DNA of 64,000 bases, taken from the NCBI GenBank assembly GCA_963796455.1, contig CAWCLO010000006.1, positions 128,001 to 192,000 of the forward strand. The letters run 5' to 3'. Positions 19,438 to 32,316 of this stretch are shown here, in pieces; within the stretch, counting starts at the first letter, position 1, and each line of letters opens with the position of its first letter. The notes under the pieces were generated by a model that was given only the letters and a program-made list of their open reading frames with translations, was not told where the DNA came from and did not search any database. The translations under genes were made by a program, and so were the position numbers. The stretch is from Candidatus Sulfomarinibacteraceae bacterium. GTDB taxonomy: Bacteria; Acidobacteriota; Thermoanaerobaculia; Thermoanaerobaculales; Sulfomarinibacteraceae.

Positions 19438-19731
19438 ATGGAATGGACGCCCGAAGACATCATCGAAGCGATTCTCAACCGCGGTCCATTCTCCAAAGAT
19501 CTTGTCGAGAGCTGGCCCAAAGCCCTTCGGAAGGACTATTTCGAACTCATGGCCCTCGATCTCGAAGATCTCGGGGCGGAGGAGTTCGAACGTCAATCAC
19601 GCTTCATCGGAGAGACCTATCTCTTGAGCCACAACAAACCGATTCGCAGCTCGAGCGTGCTCCTCAATGCGTGGTTGAAGTTGACCGACGGCGAGCCTCC
19701 GCCGGAGATGCTGGCATTTCAGGTCGAGTAG
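19438..19731 (+). CDS. Hypothetical protein (97 aa)
   Basis: GGAG SD before ATG 19438 and host-like codon usage; no recognised motif. Confidence 0.55.
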   Translation: MEWTPEDIIEAILNRGPFSKDLVESWPKALRKDYFELMALDLEDLGAEEFERQSRFIGETYLLSHNKPIRSSSVLLNAWLKLTDGEPPPEMLAFQVE

Positions 19732-19743
19732 GCGCCGCCGCTT

Positions 19744-20028
19744 TCAATCCTCGGAGACGCAACAAGACGCTTCGGTCCGGCCGAGCGCCGAATTGATGAC
19801 CGCGGCCGCACACCCGACACCGGCCGAGACGGAAATCGCATCGGACTCGCAGTTGAGGGCACAGGCTCCGCACTCCATGCACGCGTCGCGATCGCTGACC
19901 CTGGCGCCGACATCGTTCATCACAAATACCGCGTGCGGACAAACGAGCACACACACCCCACAACCGATACAACGCCCCTCATCGAGTTCAAGCGTCGTGA
20001 CACCGCGCAGGTAGGTCAAACCGGTCAT
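19744..20028 (-). CDS. hgcB: Mercury methylation ferredoxin HgcB
   Basis: Two CxxCxxCxxxC motifs (CIGCGVCVLVC, CMECGACALNC), GVGCAAA, C-terminal vicinal CC; ATG overlaps the hgcA stop (TGATG). Confidence 0.95.
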   Translation of the reverse strand: MTGLTYLRGVTTLELDEGRCIGCGVCVLVCPHAVFVMNDVGARVSDRDACMECGACALNCESDAISVSAGVGCAAAVINSALGRTEASCCVSED

Positions 20029-21164
20029 CAAAGACCCAGCCATTTCGACAGGATCACCAGGCCGACGCCGGCTGCCAGAGCGACGACCTCAATCGGTAAC
20101 GCCAGGCGCATCTCCCGCTTGACGCCCGACGGCGACGTAAAGGTCGAGGCTCCGGTGAAATTCATGGCGACAAAGGCCGCCACGGCGGTTCCGACCATCA
20201 ACCAACCGCTCGCCTCGAAAATCCAGTTGTCGCCCGCCGGTTCGGGCCAACGCGACCAGAGGACAGCTGCCACCAGCGGCAGGCCGACCAGCGCCCCTTT
20301 GAGCGCGAATGGCCGAGGGGGTATCCATGGTAAAAGGGCCGGCACCACCACCGCGCCCGCAACAACTGCGGCGAGCACCACCAGCACCCCGGTGATACCC
20401 TGCTCGAGCGCTCCGGCGACAAATCCTCCCTTGCCGGCGAGCCCACCGAACAACAAAAGAAACGCGATCACGGGGATCGCAATCTTGAGGGCCGCCACCA
20501 ACTCGACCGGGATGACCGCCAAGCGGTCACGAAACCCGAACCGACGACGCCTCATGGACGGCGTCGCCTCCATGCCATTAGCCAGGAAGTCCGGCACGTC
20601 CTCGGCCAGGACGGGCCCCCAGACGACCTCGAATCCGCTTCGTGCGACCACTTCGTGCGCGGCGATGCCGGGCGCACCCAACTGCGGCACGATCAACCGG
20701 CGGTGAACCACCACCCGGCCGAGATCAGCACTCGCAACCCGGCGCACCAGCTCATCCGTGCCGAAGGTTCCCTTGCCCGCCGCGCACCATACATTGACGC
20801 CGGCGGTATCGAGGACGAGGATCCAGACATCGAGTCCTACCGCAGCACTCCTGAGGTGATCGAAGCTGAGTTTGTAATTGGCGGTCACCAGTATTGGAGA
20901 CATGGGATCGGGAGCGCCCAAGGCGTAGAGACCGGGAGGAACTGTGTAGTCCATCCGGCCGACTCCCCAGCGGACTTTGGTCTTTCCCCACCGGTCAGCC
21001 GGACCGAGTTCGCCGCTGACGCGCGGCACAGCACCGGACGCGGTGCCCGTCCACCCCACCACGAAATCCTGGTGGAACGGGTTGTCGGCCTCACGGGCCG
21101 ACGCTCCCGTTCCTCAAGACGGCGGCGGGGCAGGGTTGGCGGTCGACAGATCGGCATCACTCAC
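20028..21164 (-). CDS. hgcA: Mercury methylation corrinoid protein HgcA; probable Sec at codon 17 (TGA 21116-21114)
   Basis: PGLYALG, VTANYKLSFD, cap helix GVNVWCAAGKGTFG, PQLGAPG, C-terminal TM helices, NFTGASTFTSPSGVKREM. The hgcA call is secure; the 5' extension to GTG 21164 is inferred (ORF track starts at 21062). Confidence 0.95.
21074..21113 (-). promoter_or_regulatory. Candidate bacterial SECIS element
   Basis: Directly after the in-frame UGA: GGAACGGG-AGC-GUCGGCC-[CGUGA]-GGCCGAC-AA-CCCGUUCC. Confidence 0.75.
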
Positions 21165-21293
21165 GCAGTCGATTGTACCTGCGCTTATTCCGCGTTCGCG
21201 CACGTCGGAACTCAGGGAGGCCGGAAGTGAACCGGATGCTGCAGGACCGATCTCAACCGAGCGCGAGCACGAAAAAATCCGTACACTGCTCGC

Positions 21294-21920
21294 ATGATCG
21301 AGATCCTCATCGCAGGAGCCGCATTTGGTCTCAGCGCCGGTCTCTCGCCCGGTCCGATGCTGGCGCTGGTGGTGTCGGAGGCCGCGGCCAAGGGCCGCGC
21401 CGCGGGCCTCGCCATCGCCGCCGCTCCCCTCCTCAGCGACGGTCCGATCATCGCCGCCTCGATTTATCTGCTGGGCCGAGTCGAGGATTCTCAGGCGGCG
21501 CTCGGCATCCTCTCCCTGGTCGGAGGGGGATTGCTTGCGTCCTACGGAATCTCGGGGCTTCGCATCAAGCCTTACAAAATCGATGAAGAGCCTCGTCGTC
21601 TGCAGATCTGGCAGTCACTCGGGAAGGGCGTGGCAGCCAACTTCCTCAATCCGAATCCATACCTCTTCTGGCTGACAATCGGCACCCCGTTACTGCTCCG
21701 CGCAGATGCTGCGAGTCGCCTTGTCGCGGCCCTGTTCCTGGTGCTTTTTTATATTGGACTGGTGGGGTCAAAAGCTGTACTGGCTGTCCTGGTGGCCCGT
21801 TCGAGATCGGTCATCACGGGCCCCGGCTATCTCTGGGTCAACCGGATTCTCGCCCTCGTCCTGCTGGTCTACGCGGCGCTTTTCATCCGCGACGGACTCA
21901 GTCGCCTCATGGGTGTATGA
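21294..21920 (+). CDS. LysE family translocator
   Basis: LSPGP, NFLNPNPYLFW, multiple TM segments. Confidence 0.9.
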   Translation: MIEILIAGAAFGLSAGLSPGPMLALVVSEAAAKGRAAGLAIAAAPLLSDGPIIAASIYLLGRVEDSQAALGILSLVGGGLLASYGISGLRIKPYKIDEEPRRLQIWQSLGKGVAANFLNPNPYLFWLTIGTPLLLRADAASRLVAALFLVLFYIGLVGSKAVLAVLVARSRSVITGPGYLWVNRILALVLLVYAALFIRDGLSRLMGV

Positions 21921-22186: not shown

Positions 22187-24543
22187 CTAAAACTCAAAGC
22201 TCACACCAAATGACGGAATGATCGGCAACCAGTACTCCTCTGGAAAACTCACGACAATATTTTCGAGACTGTCGCCGCGAAAATCCGGATCGGCGATGGC
22301 GATACCGCGGAGATTCTCCCGATTTGTCAGGTTCTGAACATCGATAAAGAAGGTCAGCAGACCCTTTCGACCCAACTTTGACGTCCGGCTGGCCCGGAAA
22401 TCGATGCGGAAATAGTCCTCGAGCGTTTCCTGGTAGAAGGGACCGACATCGTAGGACAGGCTCAGACCACCGTCCGGATCCTGGACCAGATGGGCCTCCA
22501 CCGCGGTCGCCGGCCACCCGGTGTGATAGTTGACCACGCCGGTCAGGCTCCACTTGGGGCCCGGGCGCCAGCTCAGCCCGCCGATCACCGAGTGGGGCTG
22601 ATTCACATAGCGCGGAGTGTCGATGCCGTTCAGTTTGTCCTCGATGGAAGAGAATGCATAGCTGAACCACCAATCCAAGGACCCGCCCTTCCGGCTTGCC
22701 AGATAGACTTCGACTCCGTGAGCACTGACTGACTCGGGCACGATCAGAGCCAGATCGGTCGCGAACTCGGGAACCGGGCTGAAGGGATCGAAGATCGTCT
22801 CCCAGCGCCGGTGGGGCTCACTCACTTCTCTCACATAGGCATCGATCCTGAGTACGATCTCGGATCCGAGATCGGTCTCGAATCCAGCCGTCAGATGCTC
22901 AGCCGTTTGCGCATTCTGAAATTCGGTCTCCCCGAACTGCACCTGGAGTTCGTACGGCCGCTGGGATTGAGAATATCGACCCCACCCGAGACGCAGCATG
23001 GAAGACGAACCGAGGTTGTAGAGCAGGTTGAGACGGGGGCTGATCTGGTCGTCGTCCGTCAGGGTCTGTCTGTCGTAACGAAGCCCCGCTTCAACCGTGA
23101 ATCGATTGCCAAAGCGCAGGCGATCGGAGACGTAGACCCCATATTGCTCGCCATCGTAGGTGTCGTGAAAACTGTCGACACGAACTCCGGGGTAGAAACG
23201 GGGGTCGTCGATCGGATCCTGGATCTGGGCGTTCAGTTCATAGTCGTAGCTGACCTCATAGTGGCGGAGGTCAAAGCCCCAGCGGAGGTAGTTGCGTTCG
23301 CCGATCTCGTGCTGCCAACCCTGCCGAAGACCGTAGAAGCGATCATCTCGAACATCGACCATGTCGAAAAACTCGTCGGGCTCGTCGATGGCCAGAAAAT
23401 CGCGACCGATGGTGATATTGCCGAAATAGAGCGCCGTGTTCACAAAGGACTTTGACGCCGATAACCCCCTGGTGGCCCAGCCACAGGTATTTGCTGGTGT
23501 AGCCGGAATTCACATCCACGTACTCGTCTTCGTCGTCCTCCTCGAACAAGAGGTCGTCGTCCGCATAGAGGACCGCCAAGGAGAACGCATTTTTATTGTT
23601 CGGCGCATAGGCAAGCTTGCCGAAGGCATCCCAATAGCGCGGGTCCGGCGGGTCGCCATCTTCATCGTTGCCGCCGGTCGCTTTCAAGATGAAATCGAGG
23701 TAGCCCCGCCGCGCGGAGGCCAGCCAACTGCCCTTGCCACCCGCAAAGATGCCCCCGGTATTGACCCACGCGGTTGTCAGACTGATCCCGACTCCGGTTC
23801 GGGTCTTCTTCGGCTCGACGGTATCCATGTCGAGAACGGCCGTCATCCGGTCGCCGTATTCTGCGGTGAATCCGCCGGGTGTGAGCTCCATGCCGCCGAT
23901 CATCTCCGGATCCAAAATGCTGAACACACCCTGGAAATCCTTGAGGTGAAAGGGCTCCATTACTTCCTGACCATCGAGGGTCACGAGCATCTCGTCGTAG
24001 AGCCCGCCGCGAACGACGAACCGGGCTGAGAAATCGGAACCCGATGTTCCCGGCAGGACTTGGACCGCACGGAAGAGATCGTCCCCGAAGTGGGGCAGCT
24101 CCCGGATCTGCTGACGATCGAGGGCCACCGCGGCTGCCGGCGCCTCGCGAAGGAGCGAAGCGCTGGCGGTCACAACGATTTCCTTGAGTGGGATCAGCAT
24201 AGCCTGGAGTCGAAAATTGACCTCGGTGGTCTCCCCGCTCGAGACGACGACGTTTTCCAGGCCTTCGCCGATAAAACCAGTGGCCGTTGTTTCGAGCCGG
24301 TGGGAGCCGACCGGAACATCGGTAGAATCGAAATCCACCATTCGCGTCGGTGATCGCGGATTCACCTGTAGTGGTATCGGTCACCAGCGCGGACACCACC
24401 GGCCGCCCTGCCTCATCCACGACGCGGCCCTGAATTGCGCCAACGGCCGAATCGGCCTCCTGGCCCGCCGACACCGTTCCGATTGACAACATCACCAAAG
24501 CCACGGCGGCCAAGGTGCTGCGAACTGTCCGACGATCGTTCAT
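22187..24543 (-). CDS. TonB-dependent receptor with N-terminal carboxypeptidase-regulatory-like domain (frameshifts near 24324 and 23455)
   Basis: Three overlapping ORFs give signal peptide plus IQGRVVD, plug LPG...VRGG...GGFTAEYGDR, and a barrel ending FGVSFEF. Confidence 0.85.
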
Positions 24544-24893: not shown

Positions 24894-27800
24894 ATGAACC
24901 GTCTGCTACATTGCTCGCCTTGGCTGCATTTCTATCTGTGTCCTGACCGTGCTGACCTTTGGCCTCGGGATGGCTGAAGCGGCCACCTACCCCTTCGCTG
25001 ACGATTTCGAAAGCGGTCTCGGCAACTGGACAGCGGAGGCGCCGTGGGGCGCAACCACGGCGTATTACTCGTCTCCGGTCTCCTCGGCCACCGACAGCCC
25101 CTCCACCTACTACGGGGCGTCGGTGGACGCCTCTCTGGTATTGGCCTCATCAATCGATCTCACATCGGCGACCCGGCCGGTCCTTCGTTTCTACCACCGG
25201 CACCAACTCGAGGACGGCTACGACTTCGGCCATGTGGAGATTTCGACCGACGGTGGCTCGACCTGGACCGCACCGGTGGCGAGTTACACGGGGGCCTCTG
25301 CGACGTGGATCCGCGAGCAGATCGACCTCAGTTCGTACACTGCCTCCAACGACGTTCGCATCCGTTTCCGCCTGGTTTCGGACAACACGGTGTCTCAGGA
25401 CGGCTGGTACGTCGACGACGTTGTCATCGCCGAAGGACCGGATTCAGTCACCCTCGATACGCCGGTGACGATCACCCCGAACTCGGTCGACCTCACCTGG
25501 GACGAGTCCCTGGAGGCCGATTTTTCGGTCTACCGGATCTACCGCGCATCCACCGCCACTTTCGACTGGCGCGATGCCGCACTTGTGGCGGAAATCGACG
25601 ACCCGGCAGTTCTCGAACACACCGACATCACGGTCACCCCGAAGACCACCTTCTACTACCAGATCATGGTGCTGACCTCCAGCGACCTGCACAACTCGAG
25701 CAACGAGGTCGAGGCCACGACGCCGGCGGGCATGGACTACCCATTCCTCGATGACGGCGAGGGAACCGGTTCGGCGTGGTCGGCAGACCCGCCGTGGGCT
25801 CTGAACACCGAGGAGGCCTCCTCCGGGACCCATAGCTGGTCCGACTCGCCGGGCGGCGATTATGGCGACAGTATCCCGTCACAGAGCCTGACCCTGGTCA
25901 GCCCCATCGACCTGACCTCGGCGGCCACACCTGTGCTCAGCTTCGTCCACAATTGGACCTTTGCCGCGGGCGACTCGGGCAACGCCGAGATCTCCACCGA
26001 CGACGGCAGCTCCTGGACCCCCCTCGCCATTTTCACCAACGGCACTTCGGACGGATGGGTCCGCGGACGATTCGATCTCTCCTCCTATACAACGTCGAAC
26101 GACGTCCTCGTCCGCTTCCGCACCACAACCGATCCGTCGACCGGAGCCGACGGCTGGTACGTGGACGACATCTCGGTGGCAGAGAGCCCGACGGTGGTGG
26201 ACCCGCCGATCCTCGACGAAATCACATCGCACTCCATGCGCCTCACCTGGGCGCGGTGCAACGACCTGCTCTTTTCGCACTACGCCATCCACCGCAGCGC
26301 GGCCTCCGATGTTGGAATCAACTCCACGATGATCGCCGAGATCTCGGACCAGGACACCACGACATTCACCGACACCGGTCTCGCCGTCGACACCGACTAT
26401 TACTACCGGGTCTATGCTGTGAGCCCCTACGGCACCTATTCGCCCGGCAGCACCTCGGCAAGCACTGACCGGACCGGCGGCAACGCCTATCCCTTTGTCG
26501 AAGACTTCGAGGGCTCGCTCGAGAGCTGGAATTTCACCGGAGATTGGGACGCCACCGACACCGACCAGCACGGCGGCAGCAGTTCTCTGACCGATTCACC
26601 GGATACCACATCCACACCCTCCACCACGTGGGAAGCCAGGACAACCATCGACCTGACGGGCTCAGTCTGGCCGGTCTTGCGCTTCTGGGATCGTTTTGCT
26701 CTCGCCGACGACTGGGGCTATCTCGAGGTCTCAACCAACGGCACCTCCTGGTCCAGGGTCTACAGCGTCACCGGAGCCCGCGCCGCGTGGTCCGAGCAGT
26801 CGATCGACCTGTCGCCGTGGAAGACCTCCGACAACCTCAGAATTCGATTCACCGTGGGCACCGGCGGCTCCAATGTCGACGACGGCTGGTACATCGACGA
26901 CCTCTCGGTGGCCGAGCACACGGGCAGTATCAGTCTGCCTTTCTTCGACGCCATGGAGGCCGGCACCGGCAACTGGCTTGTTGCAGCCTGGGCACCGTCC
27001 ACCGACAACCCCCACGACGGAACGTGGTCGGCACAGTCCACCCCGCAAGGCGCGACTCTTGACCGCATGGAACACGTCATGGAGCTTGCCGGTGAACTCG
27101 ACCTGTCAGCGGCCATCGACCCACAGCTCACCTACTGGGTACGCGGCGGCGTGAGCGACAACGGCAGCATCCGCGTCCGGATCTCCGTCAACGGCGGCGT
27201 CACATGGACCGACGTCCCGGGCACACCGCTCGGCGAGTACTGGAGCGGTGATTGGACCCGCATCCAGGCATCTCTGGCAGCCTACCTCCAGAGCGGCGTC
27301 AGAATCCGTTTCGTTGTCACCCAGGGCTCCTACGGCGGCGCCACCAATGTCTTCATCGATGACGTCTCCATCGAGGAAATGCCCGAAACCGTGTACCTCG
27401 GAATCCCGACTCCGCACCTCAAGTCGGTGGACCTGTCCTGGGACGAGAGCACCCTCGGCGACTTCGACCGCTACGAGGTCTATCGGTCCACGGCCGCCAA
27501 CGTCACCACCGGCAGCACCCTCGTGGCCACCTTCGACACCGAAAGCGAAACCACGTTCACCGACACCGGTCTGTCCATCGGCGCCTCTTACTACTACCGC
27601 GTCTTCGTCTTCAATTCGCGCAATGTGGCCACCCCTTCCAACGAACGCTCCACCACGACCGTGCCCCTCACCTTCCCCTTCACCGACCCCATGGAAAACC
27701 TCGATAACTGGGATGCCACCGGTACATGGGGGCCCGACGGCGCCGACCCGTACGAGGGATCGTTCTCACTCAACGACTCCCCCGGAGACAACTCCGCTTA

Positions 27801-30800
27801 CAGTGTCACCACCTACCTCCTCACCGCCATCGATCTCTCGGGCTCCACCTGGCCTGTCCTTCGCTTCCAGGACCGCCTTGGCCTCGCCAACGACTGGGGC
27901 TATCTCGAGGTCTCAACCAACGGCACCTCCTGGTCCAGGGTCTACAGCGTCACCGGGGCCCGCGCCGCGTGGTCCGAACAATCAATCGACCTGTCGCCCT
28001 GGAAGACATCCAACAACCTCAGAATTCGATTCGCCGTGGGCACCGGCGGCTCCATCGCCGGCGACGGCTGGTACATCGACGATCTCTCGGTGGCCGAGCA
28101 CACCGGCGGTTTCAGCCTGCCATTCTTCGACGATCTCGAGGCCGGCACCGGCAACTGGCTTGCTGCAGCCTGGGCACCGTCCACCGACAACCCCCACGAC
28201 GGAACGTGGTCGGCACAGTCCACACCGCAAGGCGCGACTCTTGACCGCATGGAACACGTCATGGAGCTTGCCGGTGAACTCGACCTGTCAGCGGCTATCG
28301 ACCCACAGCTCACCTACTGGGTACGCGGCGGCGTGAGCGACAACGGCAGCATCCGCGTCCGGATCTCCGTCAACGGCGGCGTCACATGGACCGACGTCCC
28401 GGGCACACCGCTCGGCGAGTACTGGAGCGGTGATTGGACCCGCATCCAGGCATCTCTGGCAGCCTACCTCCAGAGCGGCGTCAGAATCCGTTTCGTTGTC
28501 ACCCAGGGCTCCTACGGCGGCGCCACCAATGTCTTCATCGATGACGTCTCCATCGAGGAAATGCCCGAAACCGTGTACCTCGGAATCCCGACTCCGCACC
28601 TCAAGTCGGTGGACCTGTCCTGGGACGAGAGCACCCTCGGCGACTTCGACCGCTACGAGGTCTATCGGTCCACGGCCGCCAACGTCACCACCGGCAGCAC
28701 CCTCGTGGCCACCTTCGACACCGAAAGCGAAACCACGTTCACCGACACCGGTCTGTCCATCGGCGCCTCTTACTACTACCGCGTCTTCGTCTTCAATTCG
28801 CGCAATGTGGCCACCCCTTCCAACGAACGCTCCACCACGACCGTGCCCCTCACCTTCCCCTTCACCGACCCCATGGAAAACCTCGATAACTGGGATGCCA
28901 CCGGTACATGGGGGCCCGACGGCGCCGACCCGTACGAGGGATCGTTCTCACTCAACGACTCCCCCGGAGACAACTCCGCTTACAGTGTCACCACCTACCT
29001 CCTCACCGCCATCGATCTCTCGGGCTCCACCTGGCCTGTCCTTCGCTTCCAGGACCGCCTTGGCCTCGCCAACGACTGGGGCTATCTCGAGGTCTCAACC
29101 AACGGTACCTCCTGGTCCAGGGTCTACAGCGTCACCGGGGCCCGCGCCGCGTGGTCCGAACAATCAATCGACCTGTCGCCCTGGAAGACATCCAACAACC
29201 TCAGAATTCGATTCGCCGTGGGCACCGGCGGCTCCATCGCCGGCGACGGCTGGTACATCGACGATCTCTCGGTGGCCGAGCACACCGGCGGTTTCAGCCT
29301 GCCATTCTTCGACGATCTCGAGGCCGGCACCGGCAACTGGCTTGCTGCAGCCTGGGCACCGTCCACCGACAACCCCCACGACGGAACGTGGTCGGCACAG
29401 TCCACACCGCAAGGCGCGACTCTTGACCGCATGGAACACGTCATGGAGCTTGCCGGTGAACTCGACCTGTCAGCGGCTATCGACCCACAGCTCACCTACT
29501 GGGTACGCGGCGGCGTGAGCGACAACGGCAGCATCCGCGTCCGGATCTCCGTCAACGGCGGCGTCACATGGACCGACGTCCCGGGCACACCGCTCGGCGA
29601 GTACTGGAGCGGTGATTGGACCCGCATCCAGGCATCTCTGGCAGCCTACCTCCAGAGCGGCGTCAGAATCCGTTTCGTTGTCACCCAGGGCTCCTACGGC
29701 GGCGCCACCAATGTCTTCATCGATGACGTCTCCATCGAGGAAATGCCCGAAGTCGTGACCCTGGCCACCCCCGATCAGATCACTATCTCTTCCATGCGGC
29801 TACAATGGAACGACCTCAATGACCCCGACTTCAAGGCGTACGCGATCTACCGTTCGCCGACCTCAACCGTCGACACGAATTCCGAGCTCATTACCACTAT
29901 TACCGAGCAGGCAACGACCGAGTTCGTCGACACCGGCCTCCAGGCCCGCACCTCCTATTACTATCGGGTCTACTTCGTCGACACAGCCGACGTCCACGCT
30001 CCCTCCAACAGCACTTCCGCCATGACCTTCGGTGTGACCGTGCCGTTTCACGACGATTTCGAATCCGACAGTGGGGTCTGGACCTTCACCGGCGAGTGGG
30101 GCCGCGTCACCGATGCCGGTGTCGGAAACTCCATGAGCCTCGGCGACTCGCCCGGTGATTTCACATCCAACGTGGACACCTGGGCCGTCACCGGAGTCGA
30201 TCTTTCGGGCACAACGTGGCCCGTGGTGGCATTCGACGAACGTTTTGATTTTGCGGGTCACTGGGGCCGCTTCGAGGTCTCATCGAACGGCGGTGCCAAC
30301 TGGACCGTTCTCCACGGCGCCACGACAAGCCATACCGGGTGGGTCCAACGACGGTTCGACCTCTCGCCGTGGCGCGGCCAGGCGCAGGTGTGGATCCGCT
30401 ACTTCGTCGACGCCAACAGCGGCGTGCCAGCCGACGGCTGGCATATCGACAACCTCTATATCGGTGAGAACCTCATCGAAGGGTCATCGAGCTATCCCTT
30501 CTTCGACGGATTCGAAGACGGCGACGGGAACTGGCTCCAAGGCGGGTGGACGCTGATAGACGACAACCCGTACGAAGGCTCGACGAGCATCCTCGACACG
30601 CCTGCGAGCCGCCTCGGCAATTCCGAGCTGTGGCTGACCTACGGCAGCGAGCTCGACCTGTCATCGGCCACCGATCCCCTGCTGACCTTCCAGGTGCGGG
30701 GCAACCTCCCCTATCGAACCAACTTCCGGGTTGAGGTCTCCACCGACGGCGGCAAAGCATGGCAAGACCTCCCGTCACTGCAAATCAACTACTACTGGGG

Positions 30801-32316
30801 TCCGAGCCCCTGGGTGCGAATGCAGACATCGCTGGCCGGCTATCTGGTCACGAATCTGAGGCTGCGCTTCCGAGGGCTCGGCAGCTATGGTGGCGACGAA
30901 AATATTTTCCTCGACAACATCGCGGTGGGCGAACAGACGCCTGGCGCGCCTACCCTCAGTGCTCCAGCCTGGGGCGGAGACGAGCCCACCGTGAGGCCCA
31001 CCCTGATCGTGAAAAACGCCATCGATTACCAGAGCGATCTCATGAACTACGAGTACCAGGTCTTTGATGACTCGGAGCTCACCAATATCGTCGCCGACGT
31101 GCCGGCGGTCGCGGGCGGCAGCGACACCACCTCCTGGCCTGTCGACGAAGACCTCCTCCCCGACACCCAGTACTGGTGGCGCTGCCGGGCCACCGACGAT
31201 TCGGACCACACCGGTCCGTGGATGGAGACCGCCACCTTCTTCGTCCAACTCGAGGATCATCCACCGACAGTTCCGGTTCTGCTCGCTCCGGCCGATGGGG
31301 GTGAACTGGCGGATCTTACCGGCCGTTTGACCTGGCTCGAATCCACCGATCCGGACGAGGACAGCGGTGACTACGTCGCGAGCTATCGGGTCCAGATCGA
31401 TGACGATCCCGCCTTCGGCTCGATCGACGTCGACGTGACCGGAATCACGGTCTCGACCAAGGCCACGGGCGCACTCAGCGTTGCGCTTTCCGACCTCACG
31501 GGCTCCGACAGCCTCGTCACCGGAACCCTCTACCACTGGCGGGTCAACGCCAAGGACAGCCACGGCGTGGCCTCGGATTGGTCGGCCGGTCCGACTCGCT
31601 TCATCTTCGGCTCCGACGAACAGGCGCCGACCTGTGCAATCAGCTCCCCAGCCGACGATGCCACCGTGACCGGAACCCCGATCACTATCACCGGCACCGC
31701 CAGCGACGATATCTCGGGACCGGACATCATCGAGATTTCAACCGACGGCGGCTCCACCTGGACCCAGGCGGTCGGCTCGGATTCGTGGACCCACCAGTGG
31801 TGGCCGGCTCTCAGCGGCGACTACGAACTGAGCTGCCGCGCCACCGACCTCGCCGAGAACGCGGGAACGACATCGACTCCCATCACGGTCCACGCCGATC
31901 TCGACCGGACGATGTCCTTCGGCGAGGGAAGCGCGGAGATCAACGAGGACGTCGGGAGCTACAATGTGACCGTCACCCTGAGCGCGGCCCGAGCGACCGA
32001 GGTCACCGCAGAGTTACTCGTCACCGGAAGCGCCTCCTCGGGGTCGGACTTCGACGAACCTCCCCAGACGATCCGCTTCTTTCCCGGCCAGACCACTCTC
32101 GTCTTTCCGGTGTCGATCACCGATGACGACGAATTCGAGGGCGACGAAACGATTCAGTTGACCCTCGGCAGCACCAATGTCCCCGACATCACGATCGGCG
32201 CGGTCGGGGTTGTCACCCTGACCATCCTCGACAACGATGTGGCCCCCGATCCGTTCATATTCAGCAACGGCTTCGAGGATGGAGACCTTGCGGCCTGGAC
32301 CGCCCACGTCCCCTGA
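24894..32316 (+). CDS. Giant secreted/surface protein (~2470 aa): repeated jelly-roll (MAM/InhA-like) and FN3 domains, Ig-like and Calx-beta domains
   Basis: Repeated FxDDFE...STxGGxxW...GWYIDD modules, FN3 (DLSW...YYYRV), DDDEFEGDETI Calx-beta, C-terminal IFSNGFEDGD. ORF track starts at 24949; the SD-preceded ATG 24894 needs one base removed near 24900. Confidence 0.85.
26700..29751 (+). repeat. 1182-bp (394-aa) intragenic tandem repeat, about 2.6 near-identical periods
   Basis: Identical shadow ORFs recur at +1182 (27248/28430, 27594/28776); synonymous C/T difference at 27924 vs 29106. Left boundary approximate. Confidence 0.92.

Follow-up and report, generated by a model that had tools for sequence, protein, structure and literature searches.

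A probable lone-selenocysteine variant of HgcA, with a probable leaderless start, in a Candidatus Sulfomarinibacteraceae bacterium

The window analysed here, a stretch of 64,000 nucleotides of DNA from a Candidatus Sulfomarinibacteraceae bacterium (source genome G000; 5.02 Mb in 10 contigs, 90.5% complete), carries the genes hgcA and hgcB on its minus strand. The full predicted hgcA gene (20028..21164) opens with GTG at 21164-21162 and runs for 16 codons ending Pro-Pro-Pro-Ser, the serine (Ser16, TCT, 21117..21119) standing in the slot held by Cys in most selenocysteine (Sec)-type HgcA, before meeting an in-frame TGA at 21116-21114 (codon 17, the predicted Sec17), after which the frame runs on for 361 codons through a GTG at 21062 to the stop at 20030-20028. 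Translated with TGA as U, the product is 378 amino acids long. The frame is as the earlier note described it, and it continues without a break into the called open reading frame, which by mechanical calling starts at GTG 21062 and gives a product of 344 amino acids; codons 1-34 (21063..21164) thus form a hidden N-terminal extension, and a sequence scan found no ATG, GTG or TTG between the TGA and 21062. An exact look-up of two truncated proteins in the protein collection returned neither. The hgcA stop is overlapped (TGATG) by hgcB (19744..20028), a 94 amino acid ferredoxin from ATG 20028 that scores 114.7 bits against NF040864 (cut-off 99, scored from an ATG at 20043); its GVGC site has Cys and not Sec, there is a CC near the C-terminus and its cysteines are intact.

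The 378 amino acid form matches the HgcA profile NF040863 with 429.3 bits over residues 46-375 (cut-off 275), and the 344 amino acid form scores 429.8 bits, so that by the profile both are full HgcA proteins. The cap-helix motif NVWCAAGKG at residues 124-132 fits N(V/I)WCA(A/G)GK, and translation shows that its Cys127 is the sole cysteine of the protein, leaving Sec17 and Cys127 as its only selenol and thiol. In an AlphaFold model (19 sequences, mean pLDDT 82.5) residues 1-28 fall below pLDDT 50 and are predicted to be a disordered arm, residues 31-40 are confidently modelled and lead into a beta hairpin, and long helices at residues 211-377 are those of the C-terminal transmembrane domain; a structure search returned no solved HgcA structure, its matches being three corrinoid iron-sulfur proteins only. 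Codons 1-16 are weakly coding (0.04 versus 0.29 for the core) and their sequence is not conserved in relatives. The protein resembles other HgcA of NF040863 in its profile match, its cap-helix Cys, its C-terminal membrane helices and the hgcB directly downstream, and differs in the Sec arm, which the profile leaves uncovered.

Among the 77 family genomes, 10, the source genome included, have hgcA (E 1e-60 or better), and in 8 of these 10 the first in-frame upstream stop is a TGA at a distance of exactly 107 codons from the cap-helix Asn. The same eight conserve the TGA together with codons that follow it, and lack of such conservation was one of the earlier note's refuting conditions. A stop codon produced by sequencing error was rejected because seven relatives have the same TGA. 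These eight genes form one clade (bootstrap 99, SH-aLRT 96; tree of 68 rows) and their shared TGA is therefore not eight independent events, but within the clade the TGA is invariant (8/8) while its flanks vary, with four residue types at -1, four at +1 and six to seven at +2/+3. Arg+7, Gln+15, Phe+17 and Val+18 are also invariant in all eight, with synonymous codon changes, and lie at or before the first downstream start, which in relatives falls at +18, +21, +23, +26 or +35 codons from the TGA.

Among the 164 distinct loci first analysed, the first upstream stop lay at this distance of 107 codons in 41 of 99 loci where it was TGA versus none of 59 where it was TAA or TAG. The set was widened to 190 loci, of which one without a readable cap-helix motif and five duplicates were removed to leave 184; TGA was the first stop 106-110 codons upstream in 50, and after seven without the Q/D-x-F-V anchor were dropped (one of them, a Geobacter PPCUGP locus, is probably a real Sec-type) 43 of the 184 distinct loci were taken as Sec-type. 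Alignment on that anchor placed Sec in the slot in 37 of 60 loci and Cys in 5, which is the interchange between Cys and TGA looked for in the earlier note; P0005 also has Cys there. An arm of the same kind is present at a locus labelled Ca. Sulfomarinibacteraceae. Outside the family, 20 of a phylum sample of 400 further genomes had hgcA, and none of the 19 readable genes had TGA at this codon, many having Cys-rich arms instead. Within the genus of the source genome hgcA was found in 3 of 25 genomes and is of two origins, since the genes of G007 (L118) and G018 (L119) have no arm and fall in a different lineage of the tree. Four family genomes (G003, G011, G022 and G028) also hold HgcA-like matches below the NF040863 cut-off (L020-L023 and L027), with NVWCAA(C/G)G in place of the GKG motif.

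Directly after the UGA the RNA is predicted to fold into a SECIS-like hairpin (21074..21113, minus strand) with an 8-bp lower stem from +1, a 3x2 internal loop, a 7-bp upper stem from +12 (21102-21084) and an apical loop CGUGA at +19 to +23 (21095-21091), 18 nt separating the UGA from the loop; in E. coli fdhF the spacing from UGA to upper stem is 11 nt. The predicted energy is -29.2 kcal/mol (z about -5; none of 200 shuffles equally stable), with -12.3 kcal/mol for the upper stem alone, and the hairpin is the most stable in its clade. Stretches of TGA plus 41 nt that were equally stable numbered 1 in 20,000 sampled at random from the 150,123 TGAs of the genome, and none in 3,104 GC-matched ones. 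This is exactly the fold that the earlier note had drawn, but across the eight related sequences only the upper stem is conserved (91.1% of cells paired, two-sided changes in five of seven pairs) and the lower stem is not (43.8%). The covariation score of the upper stem was reached by none of 500 shuffles and none of 6 slid registers, in a test whose structure was taken from the source-genome hgcA, whose sequences are kin and whose shuffle control ignores relatedness.

The bacterial SECIS (bSECIS) model, as given in a 2026 review (PMC13188914, Fig. 2A legend), has a loop of 3-9 nt, an upper stem of 4-16 bp, a G in the first two loop positions, a spacing of 16-37 nt and a minimum free energy of at most -7.5. 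The hgcA hairpin agrees with it throughout, having a loop of 5 nt with G second (CG), an upper stem of 7 bp, a spacing of 18 nt and an energy below -7.5. The common N-G-G/U-N-N loop with paired ends does not fit, as the ends here are C and A; a GUGA tetraloop could form instead if the C were bulged out, though this is not the predicted fold. Most Desulfobacterales-type loci have a 4-nt loop at +20, whereas the family clade has a 5-nt loop, C-G-U/G-G-A/C, at +19. A longer rod helix (21051..21133) is also predicted in the source genome, pairing the Pro-codon tract and the UG of the UGA with an AGGA and the two GTGs at 21062 and 21059; it was rejected as a general conserved switch, its AGGA and downstream start not being conserved in relatives.

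The selenocysteine machinery, on which the earlier note had made its reading depend, is present in the source genome, with selA, selB and selD above the NCBIfam cut-offs and free of internal stops, and a tRNA-Sec with anticodon UCA on C10 (ARAGORN). For the seven relatives that share the TGA, tRNA-Sec was matched at 70-77 bits in every genome and a full selA in six, that of the seventh being a contig-end fragment. The arm-less hgcA genomes G007 and G018 both have selA as well, so the machinery is necessary, but not diagnostic, for a Sec-type hgcA. The source organism appears to use Sec widely, since one in-frame TGA stands at a Cys-type position in six of 12 redoxin-family matches (C4:241443-241844, C10:125679-126074, C4:219814-220218, C1:1155851-1156234, C4:458582-459001 and C1:54236-54691), in most of which a hairpin follows after about 17-22 nt. 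Further candidates, at C2:119611, C7:105182, C5:108090 and C1:356707, have the motifs GSFTUPPF, CYPU, TFVU and VPVUPVC with downstream hairpins; a de novo scan of the genome, used for examples only, gave 824 candidates that are mostly false. SelD of this genome has Cys. No Sec-type formate dehydrogenase was matched, none of ten TIGR01591 matches above cut-off being of that type, and in the one with a TGA this codon was judged a true stop.

The GTG at 21164 has no good Shine-Dalgarno sequence but is preceded at 7 nt by a -10-like hexamer, TACAAT (21172..21177), the probable promoter of a leaderless hgcAB mRNA. Genome-wide there is a strong signal for leaderless genes in this organism, the starts of long coding frames peaking 6-9 nt after TANNNT-type hexamers: ATG starts number 83, 56, 45 and 37 at these four spacings (221 in total) versus 5-8 per position at 0-5 nt, GTG starts number 35 and 23 at 6 and 7 nt, and such a hexamer stands 6-7 nt before only 43 of 41,094 internal ATG or GTG codons. 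A -10 box at leaderless spacing is found in five of the eight family Sec-type hgcA genes versus 4 of 35 other Sec-type loci, the other three clade members having purine-rich, Shine-Dalgarno-like words upstream. A sigma-70 scan returned no full promoter in 19500-21500, leaving the -10 box as the basis for the leaderless reading, and no RNA run was among the 22 sequencing runs listed. We consider that the hgcAB mRNA is probably translated leaderless from GTG 21164. A start at 21062, which the earlier note had set against its own reading, is disfavoured by the promoter-to-start signature at 21164 and by the predicted RNA helix in which 21062 lies. Together these findings support the claim that HgcA here is a 378 amino acid selenoprotein cut short by gene callers; hgcA almost certainly starts 34 codons earlier than they place it, with one stop codon read as selenocysteine.

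The residue before Sec is Cys in 34 of the 43 Sec-type loci, Gly in six, Thr in two and Ser in one, the last being the source-genome hgcA; within the clade of eight it is Ser in one gene, Thr in two, Gly in three and Cys in two. The Ser-Sec dipeptide in place of Cys-Sec, which the earlier note had proposed, is therefore present as TCT before the TGA in the one assembly read, and there is, going by sequence, no Cys beside Sec in HgcA of the source genome, Cys being mostly missing there in its lineage. Six of the 43 loci have no Cys at all from -4 to +3, and the exact motif PCUGP occurs in three, the source-genome gene reading PSUGT. A residue other than Cys at -1 requires five changes on the hgcA tree and is found in three separate groups (the family clade, Desulfacinum and one Desulfobacterales locus), and its repeated appearance with the TGA kept argues that the Cys is dispensable. 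In the source genome TCT makes up 7% of Ser codons and TGT 34% of Cys codons, and TCT is one base from TGT; with its rare codon and PPxU context Ser16 looks like a recent change from Cys.

Sec-containing HgcA is a class already in print, and what is new here is the lone-Sec variant with a probable leaderless start. Haft and Gwadz (bioRxiv 10.1101/2022.07.06.499078) describe the majority of HgcA as selenoproteins bearing CU in their N-terminal region, with PCUGP in 20 of 20 HgcA examined and an extended length of 363-400 amino acids; the proposal is cited in PMC11588087, and the part of the 2026 review available (PMC13188914) lists HgcA with the motif CU only. The source-genome hgcA shares with these CU-type genes the one in-frame UGA before the start as annotated (aligned with the CU-type TGA of 34 loci), a length within the published range, Sec machinery in the genome and the existence of Cys-type homologues. 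It differs from them in an arm without Cys at -1 or anywhere (PPSUGT versus PCUGP), in its probable leaderless start and in its Acidobacteriota-type host, the examples named in the available text of Haft and Gwadz being deltaproteobacterial. As it has every sequence feature of the CU class but the dipeptide, it would be expected to work like Sec-HgcA, as a variant of the CU form. Non-Sec, Cys-rich-arm (CC-type) HgcA have a flexible N-terminal arm of similar length, and Cys can fill the Sec slot, but their arms have at least two Cys whereas that of the source genome has one Sec and no Cys. The literature searched yielded no report of a non-CU Sec HgcA, although the Fig. 5 and Fig. S7 alignments of Haft and Gwadz may contain such, and no match for hgcA in Sulfomarinibacter or Thermoanaerobaculia; the available text of bioRxiv 10.1101/2022.07.06.499078 and PMC11588087 contains no 75Se or mass-spectrometric proof of Sec in HgcA.

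We therefore think it very probable, taking the reading as a whole, that a leaderless hgcAB mRNA is translated from GTG 21164 with Sec inserted at codon 17, and that HgcA carries a lone Sec on a flexible arm, which may serve as an accessory handle for mercury. In this scheme hgcAB would be transcribed, probably as a leaderless mRNA, and SelB with Sec-tRNA would bind the upper stem-loop 18 nt past the UGA, so that the codon is read through as Sec and the product is a 378 amino acid HgcA with Sec on its N-terminal arm; the neighbouring Cys would not be required in the family lineage, the Sec itself being the conserved unit. Selenolate binds mercury more tightly than thiolate, and Hg(II) prefers two ligands while methylmercury needs one; as a lone Sec could not chelate alone, a tethered one-ligand handle is favoured. 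The single selenolate, as one ligand, might pick up Hg(II) or product methylmercury and shuttle it between the cobalamin at Cys127 and the cysteines of HgcB, which would supply any second ligand. The HgcB cysteines are described as important for activity in PMC11588087. Given read-through, such a mercury-handling role for the arm is speculative, with a little better than an even chance of being right, and it is probably an accessory one, since HgcA without an arm occur in the same genus.

The Ser codon could instead be an assembly error in an ordinary Cys-Sec HgcA, with TGT read as TCT. The single-base difference, the rarity of TCT and the fact that Ser-Sec is found once in 43 Sec-type loci would agree with this, as would the context PPPSUG, which resembles the PPCU of G026 and G078; the codon is known from one assembly with frameshift-like breaks elsewhere in it, and contigs of four DNA runs cover none of 20954-21400, where the TCT-TGA and the hairpin lie. 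The same codon evidence, however, fits a real and recent change from Cys to Ser, and five of the seven clade relatives are also without Cys at -1. Near-identical contig pieces listed from four runs, which may include the source sample, cover 917 of the 1,137 hgcA bases and differ there from the assembly by one substitution and one inserted base, the latter absent from two other runs. An assembly error at Ser16 is, on balance, improbable.

Translation might also start at GTG 21062 or 21059, the UGA, arm and hairpin being an inherited and unused remnant of which the change from Cys to Ser was the first sign of decay; this we hold to be the least probable of the alternatives. It would be in keeping with the full HgcA score of the short product, with the arm-less HgcA of the same genus, with a weak AGGA 4-7 nt before these GTGs (the search for anti-Shine-Dalgarno matches gave mostly noise) and with the end branch of the source-genome hgcA, the longest in its clade (0.64). 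A decaying remnant would not be expected to have the most stable hairpin in its clade, to keep R, Q, F and V before the 21062 start intact or to retain a -10 box at leaderless spacing before the upstream GTG; the V codon is no start codon in five of the eight clade members, and the predicted mRNA fold holds the AGGA and the two GTGs in base pairs. That same pairing, which in the source genome joins the codons before the UGA to the AGGA and GTG-GTG, could serve a switch in which both forms are made, ribosomes short of Sec stopping at the UGA, opening the long helix and re-initiating at 21062 or 21059, so that selenium would determine how much HgcA is long and how much short; the existing TGATG overlap between hgcA and hgcB counts in favour of this. 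But the AGGA is not conserved, the first downstream start of relatives varies from +18 to +35 codons and long helices are to be expected in GC-rich RNA, and we judge this no likelier than the assembly error.

With the lone-Sec, leaderless reading preferred, the family clade bears on why microbes methylate mercury and on the role of Sec in HgcA. The published CU motif had suggested a two-ligand Cys-Sec chelate, and a clade that keeps the UGA and hairpin while Cys gives way to Ser, Thr or Gly is in effect a natural mutagenesis series, which argues that selection acts on the selenium atom alone; the HgcA of the source genome, with Sec17 and Cys127 its only Se/S-H side chains, is the cleanest lone-Sec case. 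As judged from sequence, lone-Sec HgcA would overturn nothing, the class being published. Gene callers truncate Sec-type HgcA, and roughly one Sec-type locus in five (9/43) escapes a search for "CU". More tentatively, and with the odds against it, one may suggest for the whole clade that a Sec without partner Cys, encoded on a leaderless mRNA whose 5' end lies only 17-22 codons before the UGA, is by itself the functional unit and a one-ligand handle for mercury or methylmercury, with selenium supply gating full-length HgcA; if this were true, selenium would promote rather than suppress mercury methylation by these sediment bacteria.

Divergent from hgcA in the window (21294-21920, plus strand) is a LysE/RhtB-type exporter-like gene, with weak NCBIfam matches below cut-off, that was not seen in the loci of relatives. 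In three of nine family loci scanned (L111:237-322, L112:2847-2930 and L115:1065-1150), and not in the source genome, hgcAB is closely followed by a tRNA-Leu(TAA), and upstream of hgcA in L113 (G033) is a same-strand frame of 286 codons whose product may resemble an arsenite methyltransferase of the ArsM type. The hgcB of L116 (G034) breaks after the first cluster motif into unrelated helicase-like sequence, possibly through mis-assembly in a genome of 1,370 contigs. Farther along the window an outer-membrane-receptor-like gene (22187-24543, minus strand) is broken into pieces in three frames, as would be expected of indel errors, and a frame of 2,455 amino acids (24949-32316, plus strand) has near-identical internal repeats of about 400 amino acids. 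Elsewhere in the source genome ARAGORN called five "tRNA-Asp(GTC)" of an odd length of 95 nt (C1:256404, C1:372006, C10:210759, C10:275636 and C10:353452) which are probably a dispersed repeat, and another repeated word, of 41 nt, is present some ten times over its contigs.
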